Source of the DNA: Candidatus Omnitrophota bacterium
Lineage (GTDB): Bacteria > Omnitrophota > Gorgyraeia > Gygaellales > JAQTUX01
Assembly: GCA_028707125.1 (NCBI GenBank)
Contig: JAQTUX010000001.1
Span: 468,142 to 532,141, forward strand
Length of the DNA: 64,000 nucleotides
Direction of reading: 5' to 3'
The stretch's first letter is position 1. Each line of letters starts with the position of its first letter. Both the position numbers and the translations under genes were made by a program. The notes below the pieces were generated by a model that made no database searches, was not told the DNA's origin, and worked only from the letters and a program-made list of their open reading frames with translations. This document shows, in pieces, positions 3,558-63,375 of the stretch.

Positions 3558-5035
3558 TGCCTGAAAAATTCTACATAACCACTCCGATCTATTACGTGAA
3601 TGCCTCTCCGCACATAGGGCATTCCTATACGACGGTTGCCGCTGATACTATCGCGCGTTTTATGAGGGGCAGGATCGGCAAGGAGAACGTGCTCTTTCTT
3701 ACCGGCACCGACGAGCACGGCCAGAAAGTGCAGCGCGCGGCGGAAGAGGCGGGCGTGGCCGTGCGGGAATTCACCGACAGGACATCCGGGAAATTCAGGG
3801 ATCTCTGGCAGGCGCTGAACATCCAATACGACGATTTTATACGCACTACGGAACAAAGGCACATTGAGGCGGTGCAGAAGGTTTTAACCATGCTTTATGA
3901 TAAGGGCGATATCTTTCAGTCAAAGTATGAGGGGCTCTACTGCACGCCCTGCGAGACATTCTGGACAGGGACTCAAGCCGAGGACGGGCTCTGCCCTGAC
4001 TGTAAGCGCAAGCTGGAAAGCATAAGCGAGACAAACTTCTTCTTTAATCTTTCTAAATATCAGGAAGCGCTTATGAAGCATATCGCCTCGCACCCGGGTT
4101 TTATCCGGCCCAGGATACGCGAGAACGAGGTGATGAGCTTTCTTGAGCATAACCGCTTGTCCGACCTGTGCATATCGCGCCCCAAAGAGCGGCTGGGCTG
4201 GGGCATCCCGCTGCCGTTCAGCCCGGATCATGTTACCTATGTCTGGTTTGACGCGCTGATAAATTACATCAGCGCGATCGGCTTCGCGCGGGACAGGAAG
4301 AAATTTGATAAATTCTGGCCGGCGGACATACACATCATGGCAAAGGACATACTCAGGCAGCACGCCATATACTGGCCGATAATGCTCATGGCCCTCGGCG
4401 AGAAGCTTCCCGAGGTAGTGTTCGCCCACGGCTGGTGGAAGATAGACGAGAAAAAGATGTCAAAGTCACTGGGCAACGTGGTTGACCCCTATGCCATGGT
4501 TGAGAAATACGGCGTAGAGGCCTACAGGTATTTCCTGCTCAGAGAGGTGCAGTTCGGCTTTGACGGCAACTTTTCCGAAGAGGCGCTGGTCAAGCGCGTC
4601 AACAGCGACCTTGCCAACGATCTGGGCAATCTCGCGCACAGGAGCGCCACGATGCTGGAGAAATACTGCGCCGGAAAACTGCCGGAGAAAGGCGGAGCGT
4701 TCCCCGCTGATTTTGACAAGGCGCTGAAAGAACTGCCTGAGGCGGTAGAGGCGTTCATGCTGGAATACAATTTCAGCGCCGCCCTTGAGAAGATATGGGG
4801 ACTTATAAACAAGGCGAACAAATACATAGAAGACACAAAGCCCTGGGCCCTGGCAAAAGAAAAGAAGGACAAGGAGCTGTATCTGTTCTTGAACCTTCTG
4901 GTTGAGGTGATAAAGACAGTGGCCGCGGCCCTTGCCGCGCTTATGCCTCAGGCCTCGCAGAAGCTGTTGAAGCAGTTCTCGGCTCCAGAGATCAAAAAGG
5001 GCGAGCCCTTGTTTCCGAGAATAGAGACCAATTGA
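3557..5035 (+). CDS. metG: methionyl-tRNA synthetase (short form without C-terminal tRNA-binding domain)
   Basis: HIGH motif (PHIGHSYT), KMSKS motif (KMSKSLGN) and zinc knuckle CTPCETF...CPDC. Confidence 0.85.
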   Translation: MPEKFYITTPIYYVNASPHIGHSYTTVAADTIARFMRGRIGKENVLFLTGTDEHGQKVQRAAEEAGVAVREFTDRTSGKFRDLWQALNIQYDDFIRTTEQRHIEAVQKVLTMLYDKGDIFQSKYEGLYCTPCETFWTGTQAEDGLCPDCKRKLESISETNFFFNLSKYQEALMKHIASHPGFIRPRIRENEVMSFLEHNRLSDLCISRPKERLGWGIPLPFSPDHVTYVWFDALINYISAIGFARDRKKFDKFWPADIHIMAKDILRQHAIYWPIMLMALGEKLPEVVFAHGWWKIDEKKMSKSLGNVVDPYAMVEKYGVEAYRYFLLREVQFGFDGNFSEEALVKRVNSDLANDLGNLAHRSATMLEKYCAGKLPEKGGAFPADFDKALKELPEAVEAFMLEYNFSAALEKIWGLINKANKYIEDTKPWALAKEKKDKELYLFLNLLVEVIKTVAAALAALMPQASQKLLKQFSAPEIKKGEPLFPRIETN

Positions 5036-35245: not shown

Positions 35246-36238
35246 ATGTTGAAGACAATGAGATCCCCGAGGTTTCTGGCGTGTTCCCTGATGATGATCG
35301 TATTCTTCTGCGCGAGCAATGCTTTTACCTATGCTAAAGATAGAGAGGGAAAGCGCGAAAAAGAATCAAAGGAACTGCAAAAACGTTTTGAATGGTGGCC
35401 TACCGACGCCAAACCCGCTCCCGTAAAAGACCCCGCGATGGGAGGATACTGGTGGATGCCGACAGAGCCGGGGACTGCCCGCCCCTGGGGCAACCGTGGC
35501 TACATTTATGTCTATAAAATAATCTTTGACTATAAGGAGGAAGAGCTCCCGCCGCCCAAGCCGCAGGAGCCGAGGGCGGCCCTGCTTATAAAGAAGATCA
35601 TCAAGAACGTAAAGATCTATTTTGATTACGATAAGTCCGAATTGCGCGACGACGCGGTGGATATACTGGAAAACGCCGTCAGGGTATTGGGAAGGAACCC
35701 CGATGCCAGCGTCCTCATAACCGGCAACTGCGATCTCCGCGGCTCGGAGGCATACAATGAAAAACTGGGGCGAAGGCGGGGGGAGGCGGTAAGAAGATTT
35801 ATGCTGGATAATGGTATCCCCGAAGAGAGGATACGCATAGTCAGCCGCGGCAAGCTGGACGCGATAGCGCACGTAGACGACCTCGTGGGCATGCAGAAAG
35901 ACAGGAACGCGCAGTTCACCATCGCCGAGGTGAAAGAGGTGATGATCCCCTATGGCGGCGAGGGAGAACAGGCCGCCGCGGAAGCGGAAGATATCTCGCA
36001 GGCGCAGGAGATAGAAGACGGCAAATACCTTATTGAAAAAGAGCAGGAAGTGACGTCTGAGGTGAGGATCTCCACAAAGGAATACAGGGTCAAGAAAGGC
36101 GATACGCTTTCAAGCATAGCCAAGGAGCAGCTGGGCAAGGCGCACCGCTGGAAATATCTTTACGAATTGAATAAAGACAGGATCAAAGACCCCAATAAGC
36201 TCAAGGCAGGGCAGGAGATTGTCATTCCAGTAGAATAA
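35246..36238 (+). CDS. OmpA-family protein with C-terminal LysM domain
   Basis: OmpA_C motif NPDASVLITGNCDLRGSEAYNEKLGRRRGEAVRRFM, and LysM YRVKKGDTLSSIAKEQLG...AGQEIVIP. Confidence 0.75.
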   Translation: MLKTMRSPRFLACSLMMIVFFCASNAFTYAKDREGKREKESKELQKRFEWWPTDAKPAPVKDPAMGGYWWMPTEPGTARPWGNRGYIYVYKIIFDYKEEELPPPKPQEPRAALLIKKIIKNVKIYFDYDKSELRDDAVDILENAVRVLGRNPDASVLITGNCDLRGSEAYNEKLGRRRGEAVRRFMLDNGIPEERIRIVSRGKLDAIAHVDDLVGMQKDRNAQFTIAEVKEVMIPYGGEGEQAAAEAEDISQAQEIEDGKYLIEKEQEVTSEVRISTKEYRVKKGDTLSSIAKEQLGKAHRWKYLYELNKDRIKDPNKLKAGQEIVIPVE

Positions 36239-36240
36239 AT

Positions 36241-36259
36241 AGTGCGGAAGGAGAGATTT
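36241..36259. repeat. 19-bp direct repeat agtgcggaaggagagattt (attL-like; copy of the tRNA-Leu 3' end)
   Basis: Identical to 40906-40924, which covers the last 17 nt of tRNA-Leu plus 2 nt. Confidence 0.8.
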
Positions 36260-36330
36260 ACCCGACCATCGTGCCACATAGGTCGGGATCCCGCCGAGAA
36301 TTAGACAAGTAGCGGGAGAACTCTCACAGA

Positions 36331-36700
36331 GCTATGGTGTCCTTCATCTGAGGAATGCCCAAAAGGCCGTTTGTCAATTAACCTACTCGATTCAATCCTA
36401 CTACAACCATACAAATCAATCAAGAGAATAGTCCCCGCGGGCTAGGCCGCTCGCTTCTTGCTAATGCAATGCGTGTTCGGCTCGGCTTGGGGCTGGCGGC
36501 GGGCGGCGGCGCCAGCCCCAAGCGTCCTAGCTTTCAATCCTTTTAAAACCTACCTATGCTCGGCCACTATGCCGCATTCACCAAATAAAAAACTCGGCGG
36601 TGCGGCATGCCGAGCTTCTTGGTGGAAAACTTAGTATTCTCCTTACCAGAACTAATACTAACTATACTTGCGTCTTGAGATTAAAAGAGTTACAATGAAA
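36331..36700 (+). repeat. left ~370-bp inverted repeat of the module; carries an outward-terminating hairpin and an inward promoter
   Basis: Reverse complement of 40380-40815, apart from a ~70-bp internal tandem duplication in the right copy. ctgaggaatgcccaaaaggccgtttgtcaattaacc...gagttacaatgaaaac. Confidence 0.85.
36668..36696 (+). promoter_or_regulatory. sigma70-like promoter TTGCGT-17-TACAAT inside the left IR; ATG of 36703 lies ~7 nt after the -10 (leaderless-like)
   Basis: Hexamers and spacing read directly from the sequence. An identical promoter sits in the right IR facing inward. Confidence 0.5.
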
Positions 36701-36702
36701 AC

Positions 36703-37935
36703 ATGGAAAATTATGTAAAGGAAATGTATTTGGATATTGTTAAGTCAAAAATTGCTGCCTATAAAATCCTTAATTTTGGTGATAAGTTTTCTTTAAAAGC
36801 ACCTTCTAAAATTAACTGTAAAGATTTTAAAGAGCTTATTGCAAAGCTTGAAAATGAGACTTTACAAGATGGTGCAATAGTCACTTTAGATGGTTATTTT
36901 TCAAATTATGCCCAAATGTATTTCCCATTGACATATATGCCTTCAATCCCGTCTGTGGCTAAAATAGAGGAAATTGAAGAAGCACATCAAATCACGGAGG
37001 ATATTATTATTCCTCGAGTAAAAGGAAACTTGCAGTTTTCGTTCAAGAGTTTTCAATTACCAATAGAAAATATTCCGGTTTTAAATATTGAAAATAGACA
37101 GTGGAAAATTGGATTCTTGTATCCTAAGGAATTTTCGGGTTTTAATTTTGAAGAAGATAAAACACCTGAGAAGAATAAATTAAGAGAGCTACGCTTAAAA
37201 ATCCCCTCTTCCGCAACACCGGTTTTGGTTCTTTATGACAATTCTGTTTATTCTCAATTTACGGAAAGCGACGTAATAATTACCGCACAAGTTGCCGTCT
37301 TGGACAAAGCGCTTGTTGATGAATTCGGATGTTGTTTAGGGGACTTACAGTATTTATTACAAAGGAATTCATTTTTTAGAAAAAAGGAAGATACTAATGC
37401 CTTATGTTTAATCCTTAACAAATTCACTGGCGGGATAAAAAATAGTGTAAAACGAGAAGTCGAGGGGACTTTGTTATTGGAAGCATATTTTAGAAAGGAG
37501 ATGCATGTAACTGAACAAGGTTTATCAAAAGCCTTACCCAATGCTCCTGGTGGCTTGCGTATAGCTAATTACCCGCCTTATGCACAAGCAGGATATGGGG
37601 CAAGTATACCTACCAATAAAGTTAATTTTGTTTTACGCCAACCGTTAACCTTCTCAATCTTAACTAATTCGTCAGTTAATAAAGAAGTTTTGTTAAAAGA
37701 CATTGAGTTAATGCGCATACATTTTATGCTATTTATTCGTAATATATGCGCAATAAAAGCGAGCGAGCGTAAAATTAGTCTTTCTCCTCCCGATATATTT
37801 TTCTTATCTTCAATATATGAAAAGAGTTTATTCGGAATAGATAATTTCTTGAAAGCTGCAGGCGGAATTGAAGGAGTTAAAGGATTGGCAGGCTTTAATG
37901 AAACTAGAAACTGGCTTTGGGACTTCTGTTCTTAA
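36703..37935 (+). CDS. hypothetical protein (410 aa), AT-rich, no recognisable domain
   Basis: Long ORF, AT-rich composition unlike its flanks, promoter immediately upstream, and a 4-nt stop overlap with the convergent partner. Confidence 0.5.
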   Translation: MENYVKEMYLDIVKSKIAAYKILNFGDKFSLKAPSKINCKDFKELIAKLENETLQDGAIVTLDGYFSNYAQMYFPLTYMPSIPSVAKIEEIEEAHQITEDIIIPRVKGNLQFSFKSFQLPIENIPVLNIENRQWKIGFLYPKEFSGFNFEEDKTPEKNKLRELRLKIPSSATPVLVLYDNSVYSQFTESDVIITAQVAVLDKALVDEFGCCLGDLQYLLQRNSFFRKKEDTNALCLILNKFTGGIKNSVKREVEGTLLLEAYFRKEMHVTEQGLSKALPNAPGGLRIANYPPYAQAGYGASIPTNKVNFVLRQPLTFSILTNSSVNKEVLLKDIELMRIHFMLFIRNICAIKASERKISLSPPDIFFLSSIYEKSLFGIDNFLKAAGGIEGVKGLAGFNETRNWLWDFCS

Positions 37936-40364
37936 GAGAGACAAAAGAATAAGTGATATATTTTTAGTTTTGTTCTCCATTTAGTTACGTGCAGGGAACT
38001 AAAGGTTTTTCCCGGTGTACCAACATCTATTTCTATGATTTCCAGACTATCTTTTTCAAAATCGTCAAAATCCGTCACGCACTTTTGAGCTCTATTGATT
38101 GTACCTACAAAGTCCTGATCTTTGAAAAAGGTTACCAAAAAAGCAAATTTCTGCTTGTCTGTCAAATTACCCAACAATTGTTTTTCTTTTGATTTGTAGT
38201 ATTCTTCGCCTTTCCAGACTAAACACTCACTAATAGCCTTTTCCTTATCAATCGCAATATGAATATCTGTTTTTCCTTCTCCGTGCTTGCTTTCTCGAGT
38301 TGCAGCTTCGCCAATTTGGGGAATATTTTGTAATTGCACTAACATAATATCTCTTAAATGTTCTTCACCCTGACTTCTGCAAGTGCCTCTTATTTCTTCA
38401 AGACGATTGCCCACGTTAAGCAAAGACTTAAAAACAAGTGTTTCGAAATCTTCTATTGGCGCTTCTTCATCTACATTATTCTTATCTAAGGGTGATCTTT
38501 GCGCTAGTAGCTGATTCTGATAATCAAGACGTAGTTCCTTAATCTCTTGATTACTCTTCAATTTTCTATAATCTTCTTGAAGCAATTTTTCTGCGATTTG
38601 CATCTCTTTTTGAAGACTTGACAATTTTGGTAATTCTTTAACTGCTTGTCTAAAAACTTCTACTGATAGATCAAATTGACCCCTGTCTCTCAATAACCAA
38701 CCTTTTCCTCTATAAGCCATTTCTTTTGTATTTGCATTTCCCTTAGCTATAATGTCATCAAATATAGATAAGGCCCTTTGATCTAATTCTTGTTTTTTTG
38801 CAGCATTTTCTGGCAGATCTCCTAATAATTTATAATATTCCGCTTCAAAAAGATTATTAAGTAATTTCGCATCAAAGGGGAGAAACTCTAGACACATTCT
38901 TGCTTGAGACTTCTTAGCTTCAATTTTTATATACGCGGCTAAATGAAGTAGAGATTTTCTTCGATAAATATCTTTCTTAGATTCATCGGATTCATTTTCG
39001 ATAAGAATTTGATACAATTTGTGACACGCAAGATCATAAACTTCAATATGGCTTGTAAGCAATAAATTATTTGCTGCTATTCCTATAGCTTCGATATTTT
39101 TTGGAAAGGACAAGTGGGATGAAATAGCCAAGAAAGCTAAACCTGAGTATAAGTTGCCTTCTAAGAAATACCCGCCGGCTTGAAAAGCTTTAGAAGCTCT
39201 AAATTGAAGGTAAACTAGTCTTTTACTATTGTTACTTACTAAACCATAACTAATAGCTTGTACCAAAAACAACTCCCCCAAAGACTTATAATAGAGCCTC
39301 TTTGCTTTAGTTGATTTCAATATACGAAGTGCATCCTTATAAAGAATAATTCTTTCTTTAAAAGAAACGTTTTGAGCATTTGCAAGTATTAACTTTGATA
39401 GAGCTTCGCAAATTTGAGATTTTTCAATGGCTGTCGGTTCTTTTTTGAATAATTCTGCTGCCTTAAGAAAAAGGGCTGATTTTTCTTTTGGGTCACCTGA
39501 ATGTCTTGCTTTTAGTTCTTCAATTGTTCCCTTGAGTTCATAAAGCAAGAATTTATCAGCAGTCTTTTCGGTTTCTCCACATGCTTCTTCTAAATATTGA
39601 ATTCGTTTATTGAAATCATTCTGAAAATACGAGGCGGCCCTCAGATAAGCAGATTTAACCTTCGCTAAACATTCAGGATTATCTGCTTTCTCGGCATGTT
39701 CACAAGCTTTTTTAAGCGCTGGAAGACATTCGGGAGAAAAAGAGCTATAATAATATAAAGAAGAATACAGGTAATGAAAACTCATGTACAAATTGAACTT
39801 TTTCTCGTCTCCTGCCTTACTATATTCTTCTGCACACTCCTTAAATAATTCACCCATCTTTTTTGTATCATGTTTCTTAGCTTCTGTAGTAATCTGTACT
39901 AACGCCTCGCACCGTTTTGCCTTTGCAATATGAATATCTTTCTGTGCTTGCAGATAATAATCACCATTTTTAGCAATTTCTTCTGGACTAAGCGATTTTA
40001 CTTTAGATAATTCATATGCTTCTTGTTCATAAAGCTTAGCTTTTTTGTGCTTATTTTTTTCTTCTCCTGCTAAATAAGCTAAATAAGCTGCCTTCATTGC
40101 ACGATAAAAGTTCTTGTCACCACTTTCCTTGAAAGCCTCTAAGCATTTAGCAAAATTTTCTTTTTTATTTTCTGGGGCATCGGCAGCAACTTTTGATAAG
40201 TAATACATGCCAAGCATTTGAAATCCGCTTTTTTTATCTCCAGCAGTTATATATAATTCATGGGCCTTGAAAAAATGAGGAATTCTCTCTAGGAAAGAAA
40301 TTTCATCTTTTTGTGCCAATTCTTGTTCTGCTTGCGCTTCTTTTAATAATTGCTCTTTAGTCAT
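37932..40364 (-). CDS. hypothetical protein (810 aa): N-terminal ~570-aa alpha-helical/TPR-like repeat region plus ~240-aa C-terminal domain with a possible nuclease-like acidic cluster
   Basis: Long AT-rich ORF driven by the right-IR promoter. C-terminal ...HGEGKTDIHIAIDKEKAISECLVWKGEEYY; the D..D.E.K reading is speculative. Confidence 0.5.
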   Translation of the reverse strand: MTKEQLLKEAQAEQELAQKDEISFLERIPHFFKAHELYITAGDKKSGFQMLGMYYLSKVAADAPENKKENFAKCLEAFKESGDKNFYRAMKAAYLAYLAGEEKNKHKKAKLYEQEAYELSKVKSLSPEEIAKNGDYYLQAQKDIHIAKAKRCEALVQITTEAKKHDTKKMGELFKECAEEYSKAGDEKKFNLYMSFHYLYSSLYYYSSFSPECLPALKKACEHAEKADNPECLAKVKSAYLRAASYFQNDFNKRIQYLEEACGETEKTADKFLLYELKGTIEELKARHSGDPKEKSALFLKAAELFKKEPTAIEKSQICEALSKLILANAQNVSFKERIILYKDALRILKSTKAKRLYYKSLGELFLVQAISYGLVSNNSKRLVYLQFRASKAFQAGGYFLEGNLYSGLAFLAISSHLSFPKNIEAIGIAANNLLLTSHIEVYDLACHKLYQILIENESDESKKDIYRRKSLLHLAAYIKIEAKKSQARMCLEFLPFDAKLLNNLFEAEYYKLLGDLPENAAKKQELDQRALSIFDDIIAKGNANTKEMAYRGKGWLLRDRGQFDLSVEVFRQAVKELPKLSSLQKEMQIAEKLLQEDYRKLKSNQEIKELRLDYQNQLLAQRSPLDKNNVDEEAPIEDFETLVFKSLLNVGNRLEEIRGTCRSQGEEHLRDIMLVQLQNIPQIGEAATRESKHGEGKTDIHIAIDKEKAISECLVWKGEEYYKSKEKQLLGNLTDKQKFAFLVTFFKDQDFVGTINRAQKCVTDFDDFEKDSLEIIEIDVGTPGKTFSSLHVTKWRTKLKIYHLFFCLS

Positions 40365-40815: not shown

Positions 40816-40907
40816 GAAGCAGTGAGGAGGGAGTTTCCCGACCATCGTGTCACATAGGTCGGGATCCCGCCGAGTTACTATATAGCAGCGGGAGAACCCG
40901 AAAATAG

Positions 40908-40990
40908 TGCGGAAGGAGAGATTTGAACTCTCACAGGGTTACCCCCACAACGCCCTGAACGTTGCGTGTCTGCCATTCCACCACTTCCGC
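40908..40990 (-). tRNA. tRNA-Leu (anticodon CAG)
   Basis: Reverse complement reads GCGGAAGTGGTGGAATGGCAGACACGCAACGTTCAGGGCGTTGTGGGGGTAACCCTGTGAGAGTTCAAATCTCTCCTTCCGCA. Cloverleaf with long variable arm, anticodon loop TTCAGGG. Confidence 0.85.
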
Positions 40991-57531: not shown

Positions 57532-57608
57532 GGTGGGTGTAGCTCAGTCTGGTTCAGAGCACTTGACTGTGGCTCAAGTGGCCGCGGGTTCAAATCCCGT
57601 CACCCACC
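57532..57608 (+). tRNA. tRNA-His (anticodon GTG) with extra 5' G(-1)
   Basis: GGTGGGTGTAGCTCAGTCTGGTTCAGAGCACTTGACTGTGGCTCAAGTGGCCGCGGGTTCAAATCCCGTCACCCACC; anticodon loop CTGTGGC. Confidence 0.9.
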
Positions 57609-57643
57609 CCTTTGATTGTAACTTATTGAGATGAAATGAGTTA

Positions 57644-57785: not shown

Positions 57786-58358
57786 ATGTTAAAAGATCTG
57801 ATAGGTTCAAAGACCCGCCAAACCATACTAAAGGCTTTTGTTGAATCTCCCGATAGCGAATATTACACCCGCCAGTTGGCCAAGCTATACAAAATCTCGG
57901 TAGGAACGCTTCACAGGGAGCTAAAAAGACTTAGCGCTTCGAGCATTCTTAAAGAGCGCAAAGTCGGCAATATAAAGCTATTTTCCCTGAATAAACAAAA
58001 TCCTCTTTATGAGGAGATCAAGAATATTATATATAAAACCCAGGGTGTGGTAAGTTTCGTAAGAGACGCAATATCCGGCATAAAAGGCATTAAAGTCGCT
58101 TTCATATACGGGTCCTTCGCAAAAGGAGACGAAAGACAGGATAGCGATGTAGATATATTTTTGATGGGGAATAGCATTGATGAAGATAAATTGATACATG
58201 CGATAAAAGATGTAGAAAAAAAACTATTTAAAGAAATAAATTATACGCGGTATACGGAAAATGAATACAGAAAAGAGAAGAAAAAGAAGAATTCCTTTAT
58301 ATTAGAAGTCATAAGGGGCAAGAAAACATTTATTAAGGGGGGCGAAGGTGACCTCTAA
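57786..58358 (+). CDS. HTH plus minimal nucleotidyltransferase (MNT) domain protein (antitoxin-like of an MNT/HEPN pair)
   Basis: N-terminal winged-helix and NTase motif GSFAKGDERQDSDVDIF. Overlaps the next ORF by 11 nt. Confidence 0.65.
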   Translation: MLKDLIGSKTRQTILKAFVESPDSEYYTRQLAKLYKISVGTLHRELKRLSASSILKERKVGNIKLFSLNKQNPLYEEIKNIIYKTQGVVSFVRDAISGIKGIKVAFIYGSFAKGDERQDSDVDIFLMGNSIDEDKLIHAIKDVEKKLFKEINYTRYTENEYRKEKKKKNSFILEVIRGKKTFIKGGEGDL

Positions 58359-58815
58359 CGGTTTCTTAAGCGAATATATAGAAAAGAAGCTGATTAAGCC
58401 GGAGAAAATAGGGACCGACCAGATAGAAAAAGTAATAAAAGCTGCGGAGAAAAGCCTGACAGTCGCAGAGAGGTTGCTTTCAATAGATGAAGAGACCGCC
58501 TATGAGAAAGCTTACGCCGCAATGCTCCATGCCGCCAGGGCGTTTGTATTTATGAAAGGATATAGGCCAACGACAAATTTTCAGCATAAGACAGTCGTTG
58601 CTTTTACGGCGCACTTTTTAGGCGATAAATATAAAGCTCTAACCGAAAAGTTTGACTATATGAGGAAGAACAGAAACAATTTTATTTACGAACCATGGAA
58701 ATTTCACGTCTCTATGACTGACGTTAAGAGCGCGTTAAAATCAGCCCATCAGTTTATTGATGTTATCAAAGAAGAAATAAAAAAAGAAAATCCCCAAGGT
58801 AATTTTAAGTTTTAA
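58348..58815 (+). CDS. HEPN-domain protein (partner of the MNT; canonical Rx4-6H motif not evident)
   Basis: All-alpha ~155 aa, HEPN-like helix pattern (AAMLHAARAFVFMKGY...). Position downstream of the MNT is typical. Confidence 0.45.
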   Translation: MTSNGFLSEYIEKKLIKPEKIGTDQIEKVIKAAEKSLTVAERLLSIDEETAYEKAYAAMLHAARAFVFMKGYRPTTNFQHKTVVAFTAHFLGDKYKALTEKFDYMRKNRNNFIYEPWKFHVSMTDVKSALKSAHQFIDVIKEEIKKENPQGNFKF

Positions 58816-58913
58816 ATATCTCGACCTTTTTTCCCTGATTCTTGATTGCAGGAAAAAAGTCCTGGGCCGCCAAAGGCGGACCAGGACTTAGCACTTCTTT
58901 AATCCCTCCCCAT

Positions 58914-59162
58914 ATGCCTTGGCACGTTTACATCATTGAATGCAGCGACGGCAAGCTCTACACCGGTATCACCAATAACCTGGAACGCAGGATCAAAGCT
59001 CACAATAGCGGCAACGGCTGCAGGTTCACGAAATACCGCCGTCCGGTTCAACTTGTCCATTCCGAAGAATGTCCTGCCAAACCCGATGCCTTGAAGAGGG
59101 AAGCGCGCATCAAGCGCCTGACAAGGGTGGAGAAAATAGAGCTGATTCAAGCCGCTACATAG
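58914..59162 (+). CDS. GIY-YIG nuclease family protein (UPF0213-like, stand-alone)
   Basis: WHVYIIECSDGKLYTGITNNLERRIKAHN matches the GIY-YIG core. Start at the internal Met of the ORF beginning at 58842. Confidence 0.65.
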   Translation: MPWHVYIIECSDGKLYTGITNNLERRIKAHNSGNGCRFTKYRRPVQLVHSEECPAKPDALKREARIKRLTRVEKIELIQAAT

Positions 59163-59189: not shown

Positions 59190-59420
59190 TCGGTAGCTAA
59201 TGAACCTACCCCTTTTCTCGCTCAGTGCGATTTTGCCTAAATCTAACGAGGGCCGGCAAAGGTCTCTCGCAGCTCGGTGCTGCGAACTCGCCCTTTTTGC
59301 TTTAACAAAAAGGGCTCAGACAGTCCTCGCACTTTGGGCCTTATAGGCCACAAAGTTCCCTCGCTGCTCGAGCTGCTTTGCCTAAAATCGCAATTCGCTC
59401 GAAAAGGGTAGGTTCATTTT
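59190..59420. repeat. ~230-bp nested imperfect palindrome / structured element
   Basis: Outer arms aatgaacctacccctttt...gaaaagggtaggttcatt; inner hairpin cccttttt gctttaac aaaaaggg; several further dyads. Confidence 0.5.
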
Positions 59421-59541
59421 ACAAGAAGAAGAGCAACAGTGTCACCGTAACCACGATTCCTGCCATAAATAGGTCTTCGTAATAGCGAATATATCTCATA
59501 GGAATATGATACTTATAGTCATCATATATGTCAATAGAGAA

Positions 59542-59587
59542 TGCTACTTATAGTATCGTAGACAATAAGTAGCAATGATGCCATAAT
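59542..59587 (+). promoter_or_regulatory. C-box-like operator (TGCTACTTAT-N13-ATAAGTAGCA) overlapping promoter TAGACA-17-CATAAT; ATG 7 nt after the -10 (leaderless-type)
   Basis: Perfect 10-bp inverted repeat at 59542-59551 / 59565-59574 flanks the -35. Confidence 0.5.
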
Positions 59588-59594
59588 AAAAGTA

Positions 59595-59804
59595 ATGGAA
59601 AGCAAAATACTAAGGCAATTTGGGGATAGGGTCAAAAAGCTAAGAAAGGCCAAGGGTTGGTCTCAAGAAGACCTTGCTAAGAGGGCGGGACTGCACAGGA
59701 CTTACATTGGCAGTATTGAGAGAAGCGAAAGGAATGTAAGCTTGCTTAATGTAGAGAGAATTGCAAAGGCACTAAATGTTGCAACTCAACACCTTTTAAA
59801 ATAA
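59595..59804 (+). CDS. XRE-family HTH controller (C) protein of a restriction-modification system
   Basis: 69 aa; LRKAKGWSQEDLAKRAGLHRTYIGSIERSERNVSLLNVERIAKALNV is the classic C-protein size and helix-turn-helix. Stop overlaps the next start (taATGtca). Confidence 0.6.
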   Translation: MESKILRQFGDRVKKLRKAKGWSQEDLAKRAGLHRTYIGSIERSERNVSLLNVERIAKALNVATQHLLK

Positions 59805-60775
59805 TGTCAGAAACAATAGATTACAAGATAATATTATCAAGATTTCCATGGATTGTTGAGAAAAATCAGAATGTTATACTAAGTCCTGATTGCGATGGGT
59901 TTTTATGCGGATTATTAATGTCTAGTTTTCTAGGATGGAAAATAGTTGGTTTCTACGATGGCAAGATTCTTATATTAAAAAAGGGCCTAAAGACAAGGGA
60001 CTGTGTATTTCTAGATATGGAGATCTTTAGGAAAGACATTAGAAGTGTAGGGCATCATATGCTTATGTTCGATGTTCGTAATCTACCGTCTAATTGGGAT
60101 AATTTTAATAATTGTATCCAGCCAAACAATATAAGAGGATTTGATTTTCGTAGCAGTTTTAACCTGAAATACCCGCTTGGTACGATCCATTTTCTTATAG
60201 GGATTTTAGCTCAAAGTGTAAAGATAGATATTCAGGAAAAAGCAATTTGCCCCATGCTTTTTGTAGATGGCACATTTAAGAACTTATTCAATTTCCCGGA
60301 AAATTGTTTAAGTTGGCTCCATTTTTTAAAAGCAGATTGTTTAGAGAACCCGCTACATAAAATATTTTATAATAATTATTATTCTGTGAATGAATTAATG
60401 GTTGCGTTGAAGGATTTATTCCAGAAATTAAGAGAGATTAATCACGGTAAGAGAGGCGGGGATAAGCTTAAAATATCTAACTCAAGGGGCGATATTCAAA
60501 GTTTTCAATATAAAGGAAAATTTTACGCTTTGGAAGATGATAAGAAAGTAAAGATAGAAAATTTGTTGAAGTTATTATCCGGATTAACAGGATGGAAGTA
60601 TGATTCTAACGATTGGCAATGGAATGATATGAATTCATTTATTTTCTCAAAGTCCTCAATAATGCCGCGTAAAAAAAACTACTATCCTTTGATGGACAGC
60701 AATCCTTTATCTTATGCTATCACAGGTACCCTGTCGCTAGAATACACCCTGGAAAAACCAAATAATCTGCCTTAG
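59804..60775 (+). CDS. candidate restriction endonuclease (no conserved motif identified)
   Basis: Translationally coupled to the C gene and convergent with the methyltransferase; AT-rich. Assignment is by context only. Confidence 0.3.
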   Translation: MSETIDYKIILSRFPWIVEKNQNVILSPDCDGFLCGLLMSSFLGWKIVGFYDGKILILKKGLKTRDCVFLDMEIFRKDIRSVGHHMLMFDVRNLPSNWDNFNNCIQPNNIRGFDFRSSFNLKYPLGTIHFLIGILAQSVKIDIQEKAICPMLFVDGTFKNLFNFPENCLSWLHFLKADCLENPLHKIFYNNYYSVNELMVALKDLFQKLREINHGKRGGDKLKISNSRGDIQSFQYKGKFYALEDDKKVKIENLLKLLSGLTGWKYDSNDWQWNDMNSFIFSKSSIMPRKKNYYPLMDSNPLSYAITGTLSLEYTLEKPNNLP

Positions 60776-62295
60776 GATGTAATGTTAACAAGTTCGAATT
60801 CTTTTTGACCAACATTCGCCTCTTGTTTTGTTCGTTTTTCTGCCAGTTTACAATAATCTTCAGAGATATCAAAACCTATGTATTTTCTGCCTAGCTTTAT
60901 AGCAGCGATAGCAGTTGTTCCGCTGCCCATGTATGGATCTAAAACTATACCCCCTGGTGGGCAAAAGCAGCGAATAAAGTCGACAGGTAGCTTATCGGGA
61001 AAGGTAGCAGGATGCTGATGTTTTAACCGTGTGCCGTCTCCACAAGTCACATAATCCCAAATTGTACCTCTACATTTTACAGGATTGATTGTTACTTTCT
61101 TTGATTTCAATGTATGTCCATTCGTCAAGCGAGTAGCACATCCGGTCATCGTTTTCCCGCCATGCTTACTCGGTATCTTAAGAGGGGTTTTATTGAAATA
61201 TTGCGGTCTTGAACCTTTAAGAAAGATTGGTATATATTCATGATCAACCCTAAATCTTTTTGTCCACCAAGCGCCTTCGCCACCGTGCTTTCTGTAAATA
61301 ACCGTCTCAAATAATTTAAACCCGACATTTTCACACCAATCAATTACGGTTTTAAATGTAGTTAATGTCTTGCCGAAGTTTTTAGTTTGGTCTTGTATAA
61401 CCATCGCGGTAATCCCGCCTTCTTTTAATACCCTATAAATCTCTTTCCCAGTAGCATGAAGATCATAAGTAAACCCATTATATGCTCTTATGCCATCATA
61501 CGGAGGAGAGGTAACGACTAAATCAATTGAATTATCCGGTAATTTTCTCAATCCCTCCACACAGTCCATGCATTGAACAGTGTTTAGCCATTTCTTCAAA
61601 TAATCATCTGTCTTAACGGAGTCCTTGATTTTTTTATTACCTAATACATTCGTGATTGTAGAGTTATCTGTGCTAGCCGGACTTTTAATAATATCGACAA
61701 CTATTCCTTGGATAGTAAGATGATCGGGGGCTACTAAAATAGGTTCCATGTTAGAATTTGCTGGTTCTAGCCGTATTCTATTTCTTTCTTTATAGAATTT
61801 TTTTAGCGTGACTTCTTTATTTTCCAACAGCGCAACAATTCTTTCGCCATTCTGAGCCGTACTTTGTTGTTTTATTACCACTATATCACCATCATCAATA
61901 TTTTCTTCTATCATGCTTTTGCCAGCTACTTTTAATGCAAAATAATTGTCACTTGCTTTTATTTTATCTTGAGGAACAGCTATACTTTCTCTATCTTCTA
62001 CTGCTTCAATTGGTGTACCTGCAGCTATTCTGCCTAAAAGTGGTATTCGGATCAAATTTTGTTTGGCAAAAACATCCAATGCTCGAGGATGGTTTTCCTC
62101 TTTTCTTAAATACCCCATATTTTGTAGCGTTTGGACATGATAGTGGGCCGTTGAGACAGAAGAAAGGCGAAGGTGTTTTTTGATTTCTTCTAGGGAAGGC
62201 GCGTAATCGTGCTTATCCTTGTAGCTTTTTATGAAATCTAGTACCTGTTTTTGACGTTTAGTAAGCATTTTAATAACCCTTGACTTTCGATTCAT
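60772..62295 (-). CDS. LexA repressor (wHTH + S24 autopeptidase) fused in frame to a beta-class (N4C/N6A) DNA methyltransferase
   Basis: N-terminal ~200 aa align to LexA: LTKRQKQVLDFI...SSVSTAHYHVQTLQNMGYLRKEENHPRALDV, cleavage site GRIAAGTP, Ser in AGKSMIE, Lys in VTLKKF. C-terminal MTase: motif IV VVTSPPY, then motif I FDPYMGSGTTAIAAIKLGRKYIGFDISEDY. Alternative start at Met 62268 (MLTKRQ). Confidence 0.75.
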   Translation of the reverse strand: MNRKSRVIKMLTKRQKQVLDFIKSYKDKHDYAPSLEEIKKHLRLSSVSTAHYHVQTLQNMGYLRKEENHPRALDVFAKQNLIRIPLLGRIAAGTPIEAVEDRESIAVPQDKIKASDNYFALKVAGKSMIEENIDDGDIVVIKQQSTAQNGERIVALLENKEVTLKKFYKERNRIRLEPANSNMEPILVAPDHLTIQGIVVDIIKSPASTDNSTITNVLGNKKIKDSVKTDDYLKKWLNTVQCMDCVEGLRKLPDNSIDLVVTSPPYDGIRAYNGFTYDLHATGKEIYRVLKEGGITAMVIQDQTKNFGKTLTTFKTVIDWCENVGFKLFETVIYRKHGGEGAWWTKRFRVDHEYIPIFLKGSRPQYFNKTPLKIPSKHGGKTMTGCATRLTNGHTLKSKKVTINPVKCRGTIWDYVTCGDGTRLKHQHPATFPDKLPVDFIRCFCPPGGIVLDPYMGSGTTAIAAIKLGRKYIGFDISEDYCKLAEKRTKQEANVGQKEFELVNITS

Positions 62296-62329
62296 TTTCG
62301 ATTATAATATATTCATTAGAAAAGTCAAG
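62279..62329. promoter_or_regulatory. palindromic promoter/operator CTTGACTTT-N33-AAAGTCAAG embracing the TTGACT/TATAAT hexamers for the LexA-MTase gene
   Basis: Perfect 9-bp inverted arms. Minus-strand -35 TTGACT (62324-62329) and -10 TATAAT (62301-62306) with a 16-nt spacer. Confidence 0.5.
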
Positions 62330-62658
62330 AGAAAATTTGTAAGAGTGGTATTTTAAGAGGATAGAAAATATGCCAGAAAACAAAGAAAATTCCGAAGGAA
62401 ATCTTAAAGAATCTTCGGATTCATCCCAAGATACTAGTAAACCGAGCGAAGGTAATAATTCAAATAAATAGAGAGAAAAATTAAAGAGAGGTTTCTACTT
62501 TGTGCCATCTCCCTCCCCTAAAAATTGCGGCAGTTTTCTGAAAAGCTAGCGCTGGGAGAGAGTATCTAAAACAGTCAGTTTTTAATTTATTTCTTAGGGA
62601 GTTAAGGTGTAATAACTACCATTTCTAATGATTTACCCAGTAATGAGGAGGATATTAA

Positions 62659-63375
62659 GTGAATACGTGTAATCAAAAATTTAACTTGAAGAATATATTT
62701 GTGAGAACTAAGCAAAAGATCTCAAAATTTAAAGACCTTATTTCTAATAACTTAAATTATTTGGCTAACGCGATTTTAGTAATTCTTCTGCTAACATTGT
62801 TCTATATCTTTTGCCTTAAGAGCGTTATTCTTGAAAGTAAAGTATTATTAGCTACTTTGTGGGCGCTACTTTTATACACATGGAAAACCTGGCAATTAAA
62901 AGATATTACTTTTAAACATGTTAGTTATACTTTAAGACCCGTGGTGGTATTAGATATTATTAATATTGAAAATAGTGACTTGACAATAGATTATCAAGGT
63001 CTTGGGAAAGTTTTATCGGTATGCGCAGAACTCCGCAATATTGGAGAAGGTATCGCAACAAACATTTTTGTAGGATATAGTATTTTTGTTAAAAATTCTC
63101 AAGGTAAAGAGATTCAAATTACTGCGAACAATAGAGGTCGTTCGCTAGGAAGCAAGGAAAAAAGATGTGTTGAATTGACTGTCATAGAAGACGGCTTAGA
63201 TTTAAATGAGATAGCTCTCAAATTAAAAAGTGGTCAGACCGAAAATAGAACAATAACGATCTATTATAAAGACCTTGAAGGTAACAGATACTTTACAGAG
63301 ATGCAACAAAATTTTCATGGCGCAGGATGGACATTTCTTTACACTAAAGAAGGTTCTGGGATGGAAAATTCCTAG
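62659..63375 (+). CDS. hypothetical membrane-anchored protein
   Basis: N-terminal TM (LANAILVILLLTLFYIFCL) and ~170-aa beta-rich domain; AT-rich. Confidence 0.3.
   Translation: MNTCNQKFNLKNIFVRTKQKISKFKDLISNNLNYLANAILVILLLTLFYIFCLKSVILESKVLLATLWALLLYTWKTWQLKDITFKHVSYTLRPVVVLDIINIENSDLTIDYQGLGKVLSVCAELRNIGEGIATNIFVGYSIFVKNSQGKEIQITANNRGRSLGSKEKRCVELTVIEDGLDLNEIALKLKSGQTENRTITIYYKDLEGNRYFTEMQQNFHGAGWTFLYTKEGSGMENS

Follow-up and report, generated by a model that had tools for sequence, protein, structure and literature searches.

What would a DNA methyltransferase gain from being joined to the repressor of the SOS response? The question is raised by a locus in a 64,000-nucleotide stretch of the genome of Candidatus Omnitrophota bacterium (assembly GCA_028707125.1, contig JAQTUX010000001.1, positions 468,142 to 532,141; hereafter the window, in whose coordinates positions are given unless another locus is named), where one minus-strand open reading frame (ORF) encodes LexA followed by a beta-class DNA methyltransferase, and where a controller (C) gene and a gene for a 323-residue protein, here called R323, converge on it (Table 1). 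With somewhat more confidence than doubt, we read these genes as a Type II-like restriction-modification (R-M) module in which the methylase is repressed through its own LexA part and would be de-repressed by RecA-stimulated cleavage on DNA damage.

The domain architecture of the fusion is clear. Profile searches against Pfam placed LexA_DNA_bind (residues 9 to 72, E value of 3.7e-17), Peptidase_S24 (85 to 200, 4.4e-30), and N6_N4_Mtase (257 to 487, 7.5e-41) in that order and in one reading frame; these bounds are numbered on a 507-residue form of the protein, while all other residue numbers follow the 498-residue form. Furthermore, the NCBIfam lexA model TIGR00498 was matched over its whole length with 188.5 bits, the cut-off being 111, and the protein is found in the database as "transcriptional repressor LexA" of a Candidatus Omnitrophica metagenome-assembled genome (MAG). 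The first-pass annotation, made from the DNA letters and their translations, had proposed this single polypeptide for the ORF from 60772 to 62295, and the motifs that it quoted are present, namely, the winged helix-turn-helix (wHTH) SSVSTAHYHVQTL, GRIAAGTP, AGKSM, VTLKKF, and TSPPY, with methyltransferase motif IV preceding motif I; only motif I had been misquoted, as it reads LDPYMGSGTT and not FDPYMGSGTT. The true start is likely the ATG at 62268, since the homologs all begin with M-[LIV]-T-K-R-Q-K; the alternative ATG at 62295 lies within the predicted operator described below and is absent or out of frame in the nearest relatives. In the AlphaFold (AF2) model of the fusion, three folded units can be recognized, corresponding to the wHTH (1 to 66), the S24 domain (72 to 194), and the methylase (220 to 487).

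That an assembly error or a frameshift has artificially united a lexA gene and a methylase gene has hardly any chance of being correct. A contig assembled independently in Logan (L175) is 100% identical to positions 59546 to 62185, junction included, which excludes the frameshift that the first-pass annotation had named as a possible objection, and hundreds of homologous fusions, each encoded by a single ORF, occur with identities of 54 to 79%.

As judged from its residues, the LexA part of the fusion looks functional. Its wHTH aligns with that of Escherichia coli LexA without gaps through helix 3, Ser118 and Lys156 align with E. coli Ser119 and Lys156, and the presence and conservation of the cleavage site and the Ser/Lys dyad bear out the earlier view that the repressor is complete. 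Among 120 close fusions, at least 98% retain the Ala-Gly, Ser, and Lys residues, which are invariant in our alignments A1 and A3; moreover, they are invariant in 49/49 divergent representatives of LexA-domain clusters, which carry different methyltransferase families. Because the site of LexA cleavage separates the wHTH from the S24 domain, a cut at the predicted Ala83-Gly84 bond would free the DNA-binding domain alone (about 83 residues) and leave the S24 dimerization domain with the methylase. The first-pass annotation, according to which cleavage separates a DNA-binding and dimerization module from the methylase, needs to be corrected in this respect.

In the methyltransferase domain, SPPY and DPxxGSGT are invariant across the aligned homologs. 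By the rule for the family, SPP(Y/F) in motif IV, as opposed to (D/N)PP(Y/F), would indicate an N4-cytosine methyltransferase; the relatives of the domain in the PDB comprise both N4-cytosine and N6-adenine enzymes. A search for the recognition site by palindrome depletion, made in 80 carrier loci, did not single out any palindrome.

The region preceding the fusion gene indicates how its expression might be controlled. The putative LexA operator, a direct repeat with a period of 11, overlaps the -10 element of the fusion promoter and the start of transcription predicted for it, and by binding at its own promoter, as predicted, the fusion would be autoregulated. Such a period-11 repeat lies upstream of 77 of 79 distinct fusion genes, in variants that include TTTCTAT-N4-TTTCTAT, TTTCGGT-N4-TTTCGGT, and GTTCGGT-N4-GTTCGGT, and a -10-like hexamer abuts or overlaps the second repeat in 55 of the 67 loci of direct type. 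Most related fusion genes are driven by a TTGACT-17-TATAAT-type arrangement with the operator in the spacer. LexA boxes that consist of direct repeats, of the type GTTC-N7-GTTC, have been described before (PMC8565304).

The operator changes together with the protein. Both half-sites vary in concert between loci, and the recognition-helix residue at the position of Tyr43 agrees with the operator sequence in 74 of 75 cases: Phe, Tyr, or His occurs with the half-site TTTC(T/G)AT (49/49), Gln with TTCGGT (17/18), and Glu with TCGGG (8/8). A crude S24-domain tree showed at least 15 changes of operator class and 16 changes of residue class. Tyr43 aligns with Glu45 of E. coli LexA, a residue that contacts DNA (PMC3091678).

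Within the 64-kb window, the operator has one exact match, the one at positions 62285 to 62302, and no second lexA gene was found; similarly, extra operator copies are rare in the flanks of 75 loci. A LexA operator at the C/R323 promoter was considered as a general feature and discarded, a good copy being present in only three related loci (L021, L024, and L032), where it falls within the 5' end of the C gene; in L024, the operator specific to that locus is repeated exactly at 4553 to 4570, about 25 nucleotides into the C-gene coding sequence. In this subgroup, the fusion may additionally block the C-R323 operon. A site resembling the operator but for two mismatches, TTTCGAGcgaaTTGCGAT, lies in the window on the minus strand at 59387 to 59404, some 190 bp upstream from the C gene; such a site is within chance expectation.

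Some loci depart from the common arrangement. The one fusion gene lacking the direct-repeat operator is located in L009 and follows a same-strand ORF of 234 residues, with another palindrome, GGTGTCAtTGACACC, upstream (4830 to 4991). In L026 and L070, two operators in inverted orientation flank the -10 element, and in these and many other loci the sequence GTCAA(G), which mirrors the -35 element TTGAC, recurs just 5' of the fusion start codon; together, the mirrored sequence and the inverted operators suggest an ancestral, large palindromic control region.

In addition to the LexA operator, a perfect DnaA box (TGTGGATAA/TTATCCACA) stands beside or just upstream of it in 48 of 74 distinct related loci (within L004 to L094 and at most 200 bp upstream of the fusion start; for example, L019, L042, and L052). 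Of the 55 exact DnaA boxes in 489 kb, 49 fall in the 200-bp stretches upstream of fusion starts, in either orientation. The window itself has no such box. These occurrences suggest that the methylase promoter is tied to replication initiation as well.

The fusion is no isolated case and belongs to a large family. Full-length fusions account for 120/120 of the best database matches, with 61 to 79% identity, and those that are named come mostly from Patescibacteria, or the candidate phyla radiation (CPR). In a metagenome scan, 542 stretches were confirmed as fusion relatives, and all 80 loci kept contain fusions; among species-representative genomes, the fusion is found in Buchananbacteria, Omnitrophota, a gammaproteobacterial MAG, and Planctomycetales.

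Moreover, the LexA module behaves as a portable unit, carried by many methylase types. Between the window and L012, the LexA modules share 75.5% identity, the C proteins share 76%, and the promoter-operator cassette is common to both, whereas the methyltransferases are 25% identical and the nucleases are unrelated. L009 and L086 each contain a second LexA-methylase fusion of another class, with recognition helices that differ within the locus; in L009, the same TTGACT-operator-TATACT cassette precedes the second fusion, whose methyltransferase is of a different class. The genes that had been taken for stand-alone lexA near the fusion in these two loci proved to be these further fusions. We then considered the 49 proteins of more than 290 residues among the closest LexA-domain cluster representatives. 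All of them (49/49) contain LexA_DNA_bind and Peptidase_S24, and their other domains are N6_N4 (31), Eco57I (7), D12 (5), N6_Mtase (5), MmeI (4), and C5 (3), apart from a few generic helix-turn-helix models. The LexA module is joined to at least five families of DNA methyltransferases.

Examples of the module on unrelated methyltransferases (Dam-like D12, Eco57I/N6_Mtase/MmeI, C5, and other beta-class enzymes) are L086 22 to 1566, L009 564 to 2429, L012 5001 to 6449, and the proteins P0241 to P0340. Each of these other-class systems has its own neighboring candidate nuclease, and two systems can adjoin in one locus.

The methylase family occurs in viral contigs too (L095 to L174; 80 copies with 45 to 73% identity, some labeled as giant-virus MAGs). 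None of the 80 copies carries LexA, and a homolog of R323 is nearby in only 4 of them. From these features, the viral copies look like orphan anti-restriction methylases that mimic the protection conferred by cellular R-M systems.

The partner genes of the fusion are arranged as the first-pass annotation had reported them, converging on the fusion and translationally coupled, with the stop codon of the C gene overlapping the ATG of R323 (TAATG) and a PADLOC Control_protein match for the C product. The 10-bp inverted repeat that it had placed over a leaderless-type promoter was found as well (TGCTACTTAT at 59542 to 59551 and ATAAGTAGCA at 59565 to 59574), overlapped by a promoter-like TAGACA-17-CATAAT whose -10 element ends 7 nucleotides before the ATG of the C gene. 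L012, whose C gene is 76% identical, has the C-boxes upstream of this gene too, within flanking DNA that differs. The C protein precedes R323 in 37/71 loci, so that it was ruled out as a constant component.

R323 itself shows strict linkage to the fusion: wherever a locus leaves room for it, with hardly any exception, a convergent copy lies no more than about 45 bp downstream, and in two loci it is degraded. It also adjoins, again convergently, unfused relatives of the methylase in L010 and L011 (Berkelbacteria and Kazan genomes). We found at least 715 homologs, all unnamed and none with a Pfam domain, one of them from a Pacearchaeota archaeon; no family match was obtained in Pfam (for 48 members, and with E values up to 10), NCBIfam, or PADLOC. 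The conserved positions are PDxDG (28 to 32), D52, LDxE (70 to 73), and H85, among which D29, D31, D52, D71, E73, and H85 are invariant and resemble, by eye, DHH motifs I to III, and the fold appears remotely DHH/RecJ-like, without a match to DHH families at the sequence level. The "presumptive endonuclease" of the first-pass annotation is not supported as written, given that R323 matches no known restriction-enzyme family. Its proposed role as the restriction enzyme is suggested by the gene linkage, the coupling with the C gene, and its absence from 76 of the 80 viral orphan methylases. The stop codons of R323 and of the fusion overlap (60772 to 60775) and no terminator-like structure lies between the genes; therefore, the two convergent transcripts must run into each other.

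Taking these elements together, it is possible to hypothesize how the system works. The C protein and R323 would be expressed from one operon and the methyltransferase from the opposite strand, with the methyltransferase acting as its own repressor. The fusion would dimerize via its S24 domain and bind TTTCGAT-N4-TTTCGAT over its own -10 element and start site through the LexA wHTH, so that synthesis of the methylase would stay low and steady. When RecA filaments form, as they might upon self-restriction, during repair, or under replication stress, the S24 domain would cut the Ala83-Gly84 bond, releasing the DNA-binding domain of 83 residues and leaving the S24-linker-methylase portion intact and, presumably, active and stable. 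With repression lifted, more methylase would be made and the chromosome would be protected, in what could be the equivalent, for a Type II system, of restriction alleviation. Expression of the putative nuclease may be reduced as well if transcription entering R323 through its overlapping 3' end becomes stronger, since the overlap of the stop codons and the lack of a terminator imply that increased methylase transcription could interfere with R323. The repression of their own promoter by methylases with an N-terminal helix-turn-helix is an established mode of R-M control, and self-restriction induces SOS (PMC3874152); therefore, de-repression driven by cleavage would close a protective feedback loop.

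The main rival of this proposal reverses the consequence of cleavage. In a suicide triggered by SOS, cleavage would expose degradation signals, the methylase would be destroyed, and R323 would cut the chromosome and kill the cell, following an abortive-infection logic in which DNA damage is the sign of phage infection or prophage induction. We regard this as rather unlikely. The cleavage fragments of E. coli LexA are, as textbooks have it, rapidly degraded, the cleavage residues of the fusion are strictly conserved, and a MNT/HEPN pair is encoded on the same island, all of which would suit it, as would the fact that R-M systems act like toxin-antitoxin pairs in which an unstable methylase strengthens host killing (PMC3874152). 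On the other hand, cleavage would at the same time de-repress the methylase promoter and so counter the depletion, the DnaA box of most relatives better fits a supply on demand, and no degradation signal is indicated in the fusion sequence. Sequence alone cannot decide between suicide and a methylase boosted by damage. A simpler alternative, which we consider unlikely, is that the LexA module serves merely as a dimerizing DNA-binding domain, as in SsoII and EcoRII, and that self-cleavage has no physiological role. This would agree with the established autorepression by methylases with an N-terminal helix-turn-helix, and it would explain the operator and the covariation equally well, but cleavage would then be unused, and the invariance of Ala-Gly, Ser, and Lys in the 49 divergent representatives, across at least five methyltransferase families, as well as their retention in at least 98% of the 120 close fusions, would not be expected. 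Finally, the fusion might be the general LexA of the organism or element, having a wider regulon and the methylase as an incidental passenger. The score above the NCBIfam lexA equivalog cut-off, the NCBI name, and the resemblance of the operator to known direct-repeat LexA boxes speak for this very unlikely possibility; the constant pairing with R323, the location on a foreign low-GC island, the presence of two fusions with different recognition helices in one locus (L086 and L009), the rarity of extra operators in the flanks, and the single exact site in the window speak against it.

Some considerations also weigh against the damage-boosted methylase that we favor. In E. coli, ClpXP and Lon degrade the fragments of LexA, and a fragment of S24 domain and methyltransferase degraded in an analogous way would give the opposite outcome, namely, loss of methylase. 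DNA binding, cleavage, methylation, and restriction, and with them the direction of the physiological effect, are all predicted from sequence, and the scans for the operator and for a second lexA gene cover the 64-kb window of the host genome. The operator cassette of the window is inverted compared to that of most relatives and a mirror promoter opposes the fusion promoter, which makes it uncertain which promoter is in use. Since the operator and the sequence coding for the wHTH are no more than 100 bp apart, co-inheritance of the two in recombination blocks could inflate the covariation. As regards the plus-strand promoter, which overlaps the fusion promoter around the operator and is likewise close to consensus, it faces a 34-codon ORF (62371 to 62472) with a good ribosome-binding site and, farther on, a membrane-like ORF of 238 residues (62659 to 63375), for which no family match was found.

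The comparison with known systems helps to define what is distinctive here. As in SsoII, Ecl18kI, EcoRII, and ScrFI, in which the methyltransferase represses itself through an N-terminal helix-turn-helix, the fusion has a DNA-binding domain at its N-terminus as well as an operator overlapping its own -10 element. However, different from those C5 methylases, which have a short helix-turn-helix and no protease domain, it contains a complete LexA with S24 domain, through which DNA damage is predicted to act on it; its operator is a direct repeat with a period of 11, and a C protein is additionally present. With the SOS repressor (TIGR00498; E. coli and Thermotoga maritima, structures 3JSO and 3K2Z), the fusion shares the full-length match, the wHTH, the Ala-Gly bond, the Ser/Lys pair, and an operator at its own promoter, but it is joined by a linker to a methyltransferase, always linked to a candidate nuclease gene, and located on a mobile island; no wider regulon is evident from the one exact operator in the 64-kb window and the few extra copies in 75 loci. 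The coupling of the C gene to its partner, the C-boxes over a leaderless-type promoter, and the convergent methylase recall the Esp1396I type and the PvuII C-boxes. In contrast to the Esp1396I type, the methylase promoter has a LexA operator instead of a C-box, about half of the relatives do without C, and the partner R323 is outside the known restriction-enzyme families.

Two further systems are comparable in their logic. Type I restriction alleviation after DNA damage is a ClpXP-dependent loss of HsdR; like the mechanism proposed here, it lowers the restriction pressure on the host's own chromosome when damage or repair produces unprotected DNA. The likeness is a functional analogy only, as the former relies on proteolysis of the restriction subunit, while the latter would rely on self-cleavage of a repressor that raises modification. 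In CapH/CapP of CBASS and related defense operons, a helix-turn-helix repressor is inactivated by proteolysis upon DNA damage; there, a separate repressor and metalloprotease control an operon of immune effectors, whereas the fusion combines repressor, protease, and protective enzyme in one polypeptide. Concerning R323, the DHH/DHHA1 phosphoesterases (RecJ, Cdc45/GAN, NrnA, and GdpP) are exonucleases or phosphodiesterases and not site-specific endonucleases, R323 has no sequence-level match to them, and to our knowledge there is no restriction enzyme with a DHH fold. Autoregulated R-M methylases and LexA are already known; what appears to be new is that the two are fused, that such fusions extend over all methylase classes, and that modification would thereby come under SOS control. 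In agreement with the first-pass annotation, which knew of no such fusion, no description of a LexA-methyltransferase fusion was found in full-text literature searches, with a coverage that lacks the paper on SOS in Patescibacteria (PMID 28618189).

Table 1. Coordinates of the fusion gene, its predicted control elements, and the neighboring features in the window
Feature	Position	Strand	Basis and remarks
tRNA-His	57533-57610	+	ARAGORN; left border of low-GC island
MNT (57786-58358) and HEPN (58348-58815), overlapping pair	57786-58815	+	Pfam Polbeta/NTP_transf_2, HEPN
Small GIY-YIG domain protein	58842-59162	+	Pfam GIY-YIG, E 5.7e-20
C-gene control region	59489-59587	+	C-boxes ACTTATAGT (two copies), inverted repeat TGCTACTTAT/ATAAGTAGCA, leaderless-type promoter
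C (controller) protein, 69 aa	59595-59804	+	Pfam HTH_3, E 4.6e-18; PADLOC Control_protein, E 3.6e-25
R323, candidate restriction endonuclease, 323 aa	59804-60775	+	Coupled to C; uncharacterized family
LexA-methyltransferase fusion gene	60772-62268	-	498 aa; 507 aa if started at ATG 62295
Beta-class N6/N4 DNA methyltransferase domain	60835-61527	-	Pfam N6_N4_Mtase; PADLOC MTase_II and oMTase
Methyltransferase motif I, DPYMGSGTT	60913-60939	-	
Methyltransferase motif IV, SPPY	61498-61509	-	
Flexible linker between LexA module and methyltransferase, aa 198-218	61615-61677	-	About 20 residues; AF2 confidence score (pLDDT) below 50; poorly conserved
Peptidase S24 catalytic/dimerization domain	61696-62043	-	Pfam, E 4.4e-30; Ser118 at 61915-61917, Lys156 at 61801-61803
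Predicted self-cleavage bond, Ala83-Gly84	62017-62022	-	Read from sequence; aligns to E. coli Ala84-Gly85
LexA wHTH DNA-binding domain, aa 1-72	62053-62268	-	Pfam LexA_DNA_bind; recognition helix SVSTAHYHVQTL, specificity residue Tyr43
Mirror promoter-like cassette, TTGACT-17-TATAAT	62280-62308	+	Promoter scan, 11/12; operator in spacer; faces away from fusion
LexA operator (predicted), direct repeat TTTCGATtcatTTTCGAT	62285-62302	+ (antisense to fusion)	TTTCGAT-N4-TTTCGAT (TTTC-N7-TTTC), period 11
Fusion-gene promoter, TTGACT-16-TATAAT	62301-62328	-	Promoter scan, 11/12 matches

The surroundings of the module point to a horizontally acquired, foreign island, as judged by base composition, because the low-GC stretch begins directly after tRNA-His: the GC content, about 0.51 before, is 0.35 to 0.41 between 58 kb and the window's last position. 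The neighboring MNT/HEPN pair and GIY-YIG gene of the first-pass annotation were recovered with Pfam, and the pair corresponds in PADLOC to the candidate defense system PDC-M05 (PDC-M05A, E value of 7.7e-53; PDC-M05B, 2.3e-15), while the GIY-YIG protein (58842 to 59162) has no PADLOC match. A second low-GC stretch (0.34 to 0.39) at positions 36000 to 40000, adjoining tRNA-Leu (40907 to 40990), may be another acquired island.

On a broader level, we tentatively propose, while giving it rather less than an even chance in its entirety, that the fusions represent a large undescribed class of R-M systems, which belong mainly to Patescibacteria/CPR and have also reached Omnitrophota, Planctomycetota, and other groups. 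In this class, a portable cassette of promoter, operator, and LexA would be placed on every major methyltransferase class (beta, alpha, gamma, and C5), and the level of methylation would be set by RecA-dependent self-cleavage and mostly by a DnaA box too, constituting a sensor of damage and replication against self-restriction; the partner in the window would be the first restriction enzyme with a DHH/RecJ-like fold.

For Type I systems, it is well established how killing of the host is avoided when repair or replication outpaces methylation, namely, by restriction alleviation; for Type II systems, this is much less clear. A RecA-sensitive repressor on the methylase would, if our proposal is true, be a direct answer to the Type II self-restriction problem, contained in a single polypeptide, and the DnaA box at the fusion promoters hints at a coupling between modification and replication initiation. 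If R323 is the nuclease, its fold would be unreported for a restriction enzyme, and the protein may define a new one. The correspondence between residue and operator (Phe/Tyr/His, Gln, and Glu with TAT/GAT, GGT, and GGG, respectively) amounts to a simple natural code of LexA specificity, of possible use in engineering. Furthermore, the database label "transcriptional repressor LexA" mislabels R-M methylases and would inflate the counts of SOS regulators in CPR genomes, and the family is large and resides in lineages with tiny genomes, whose regulation is poorly understood.

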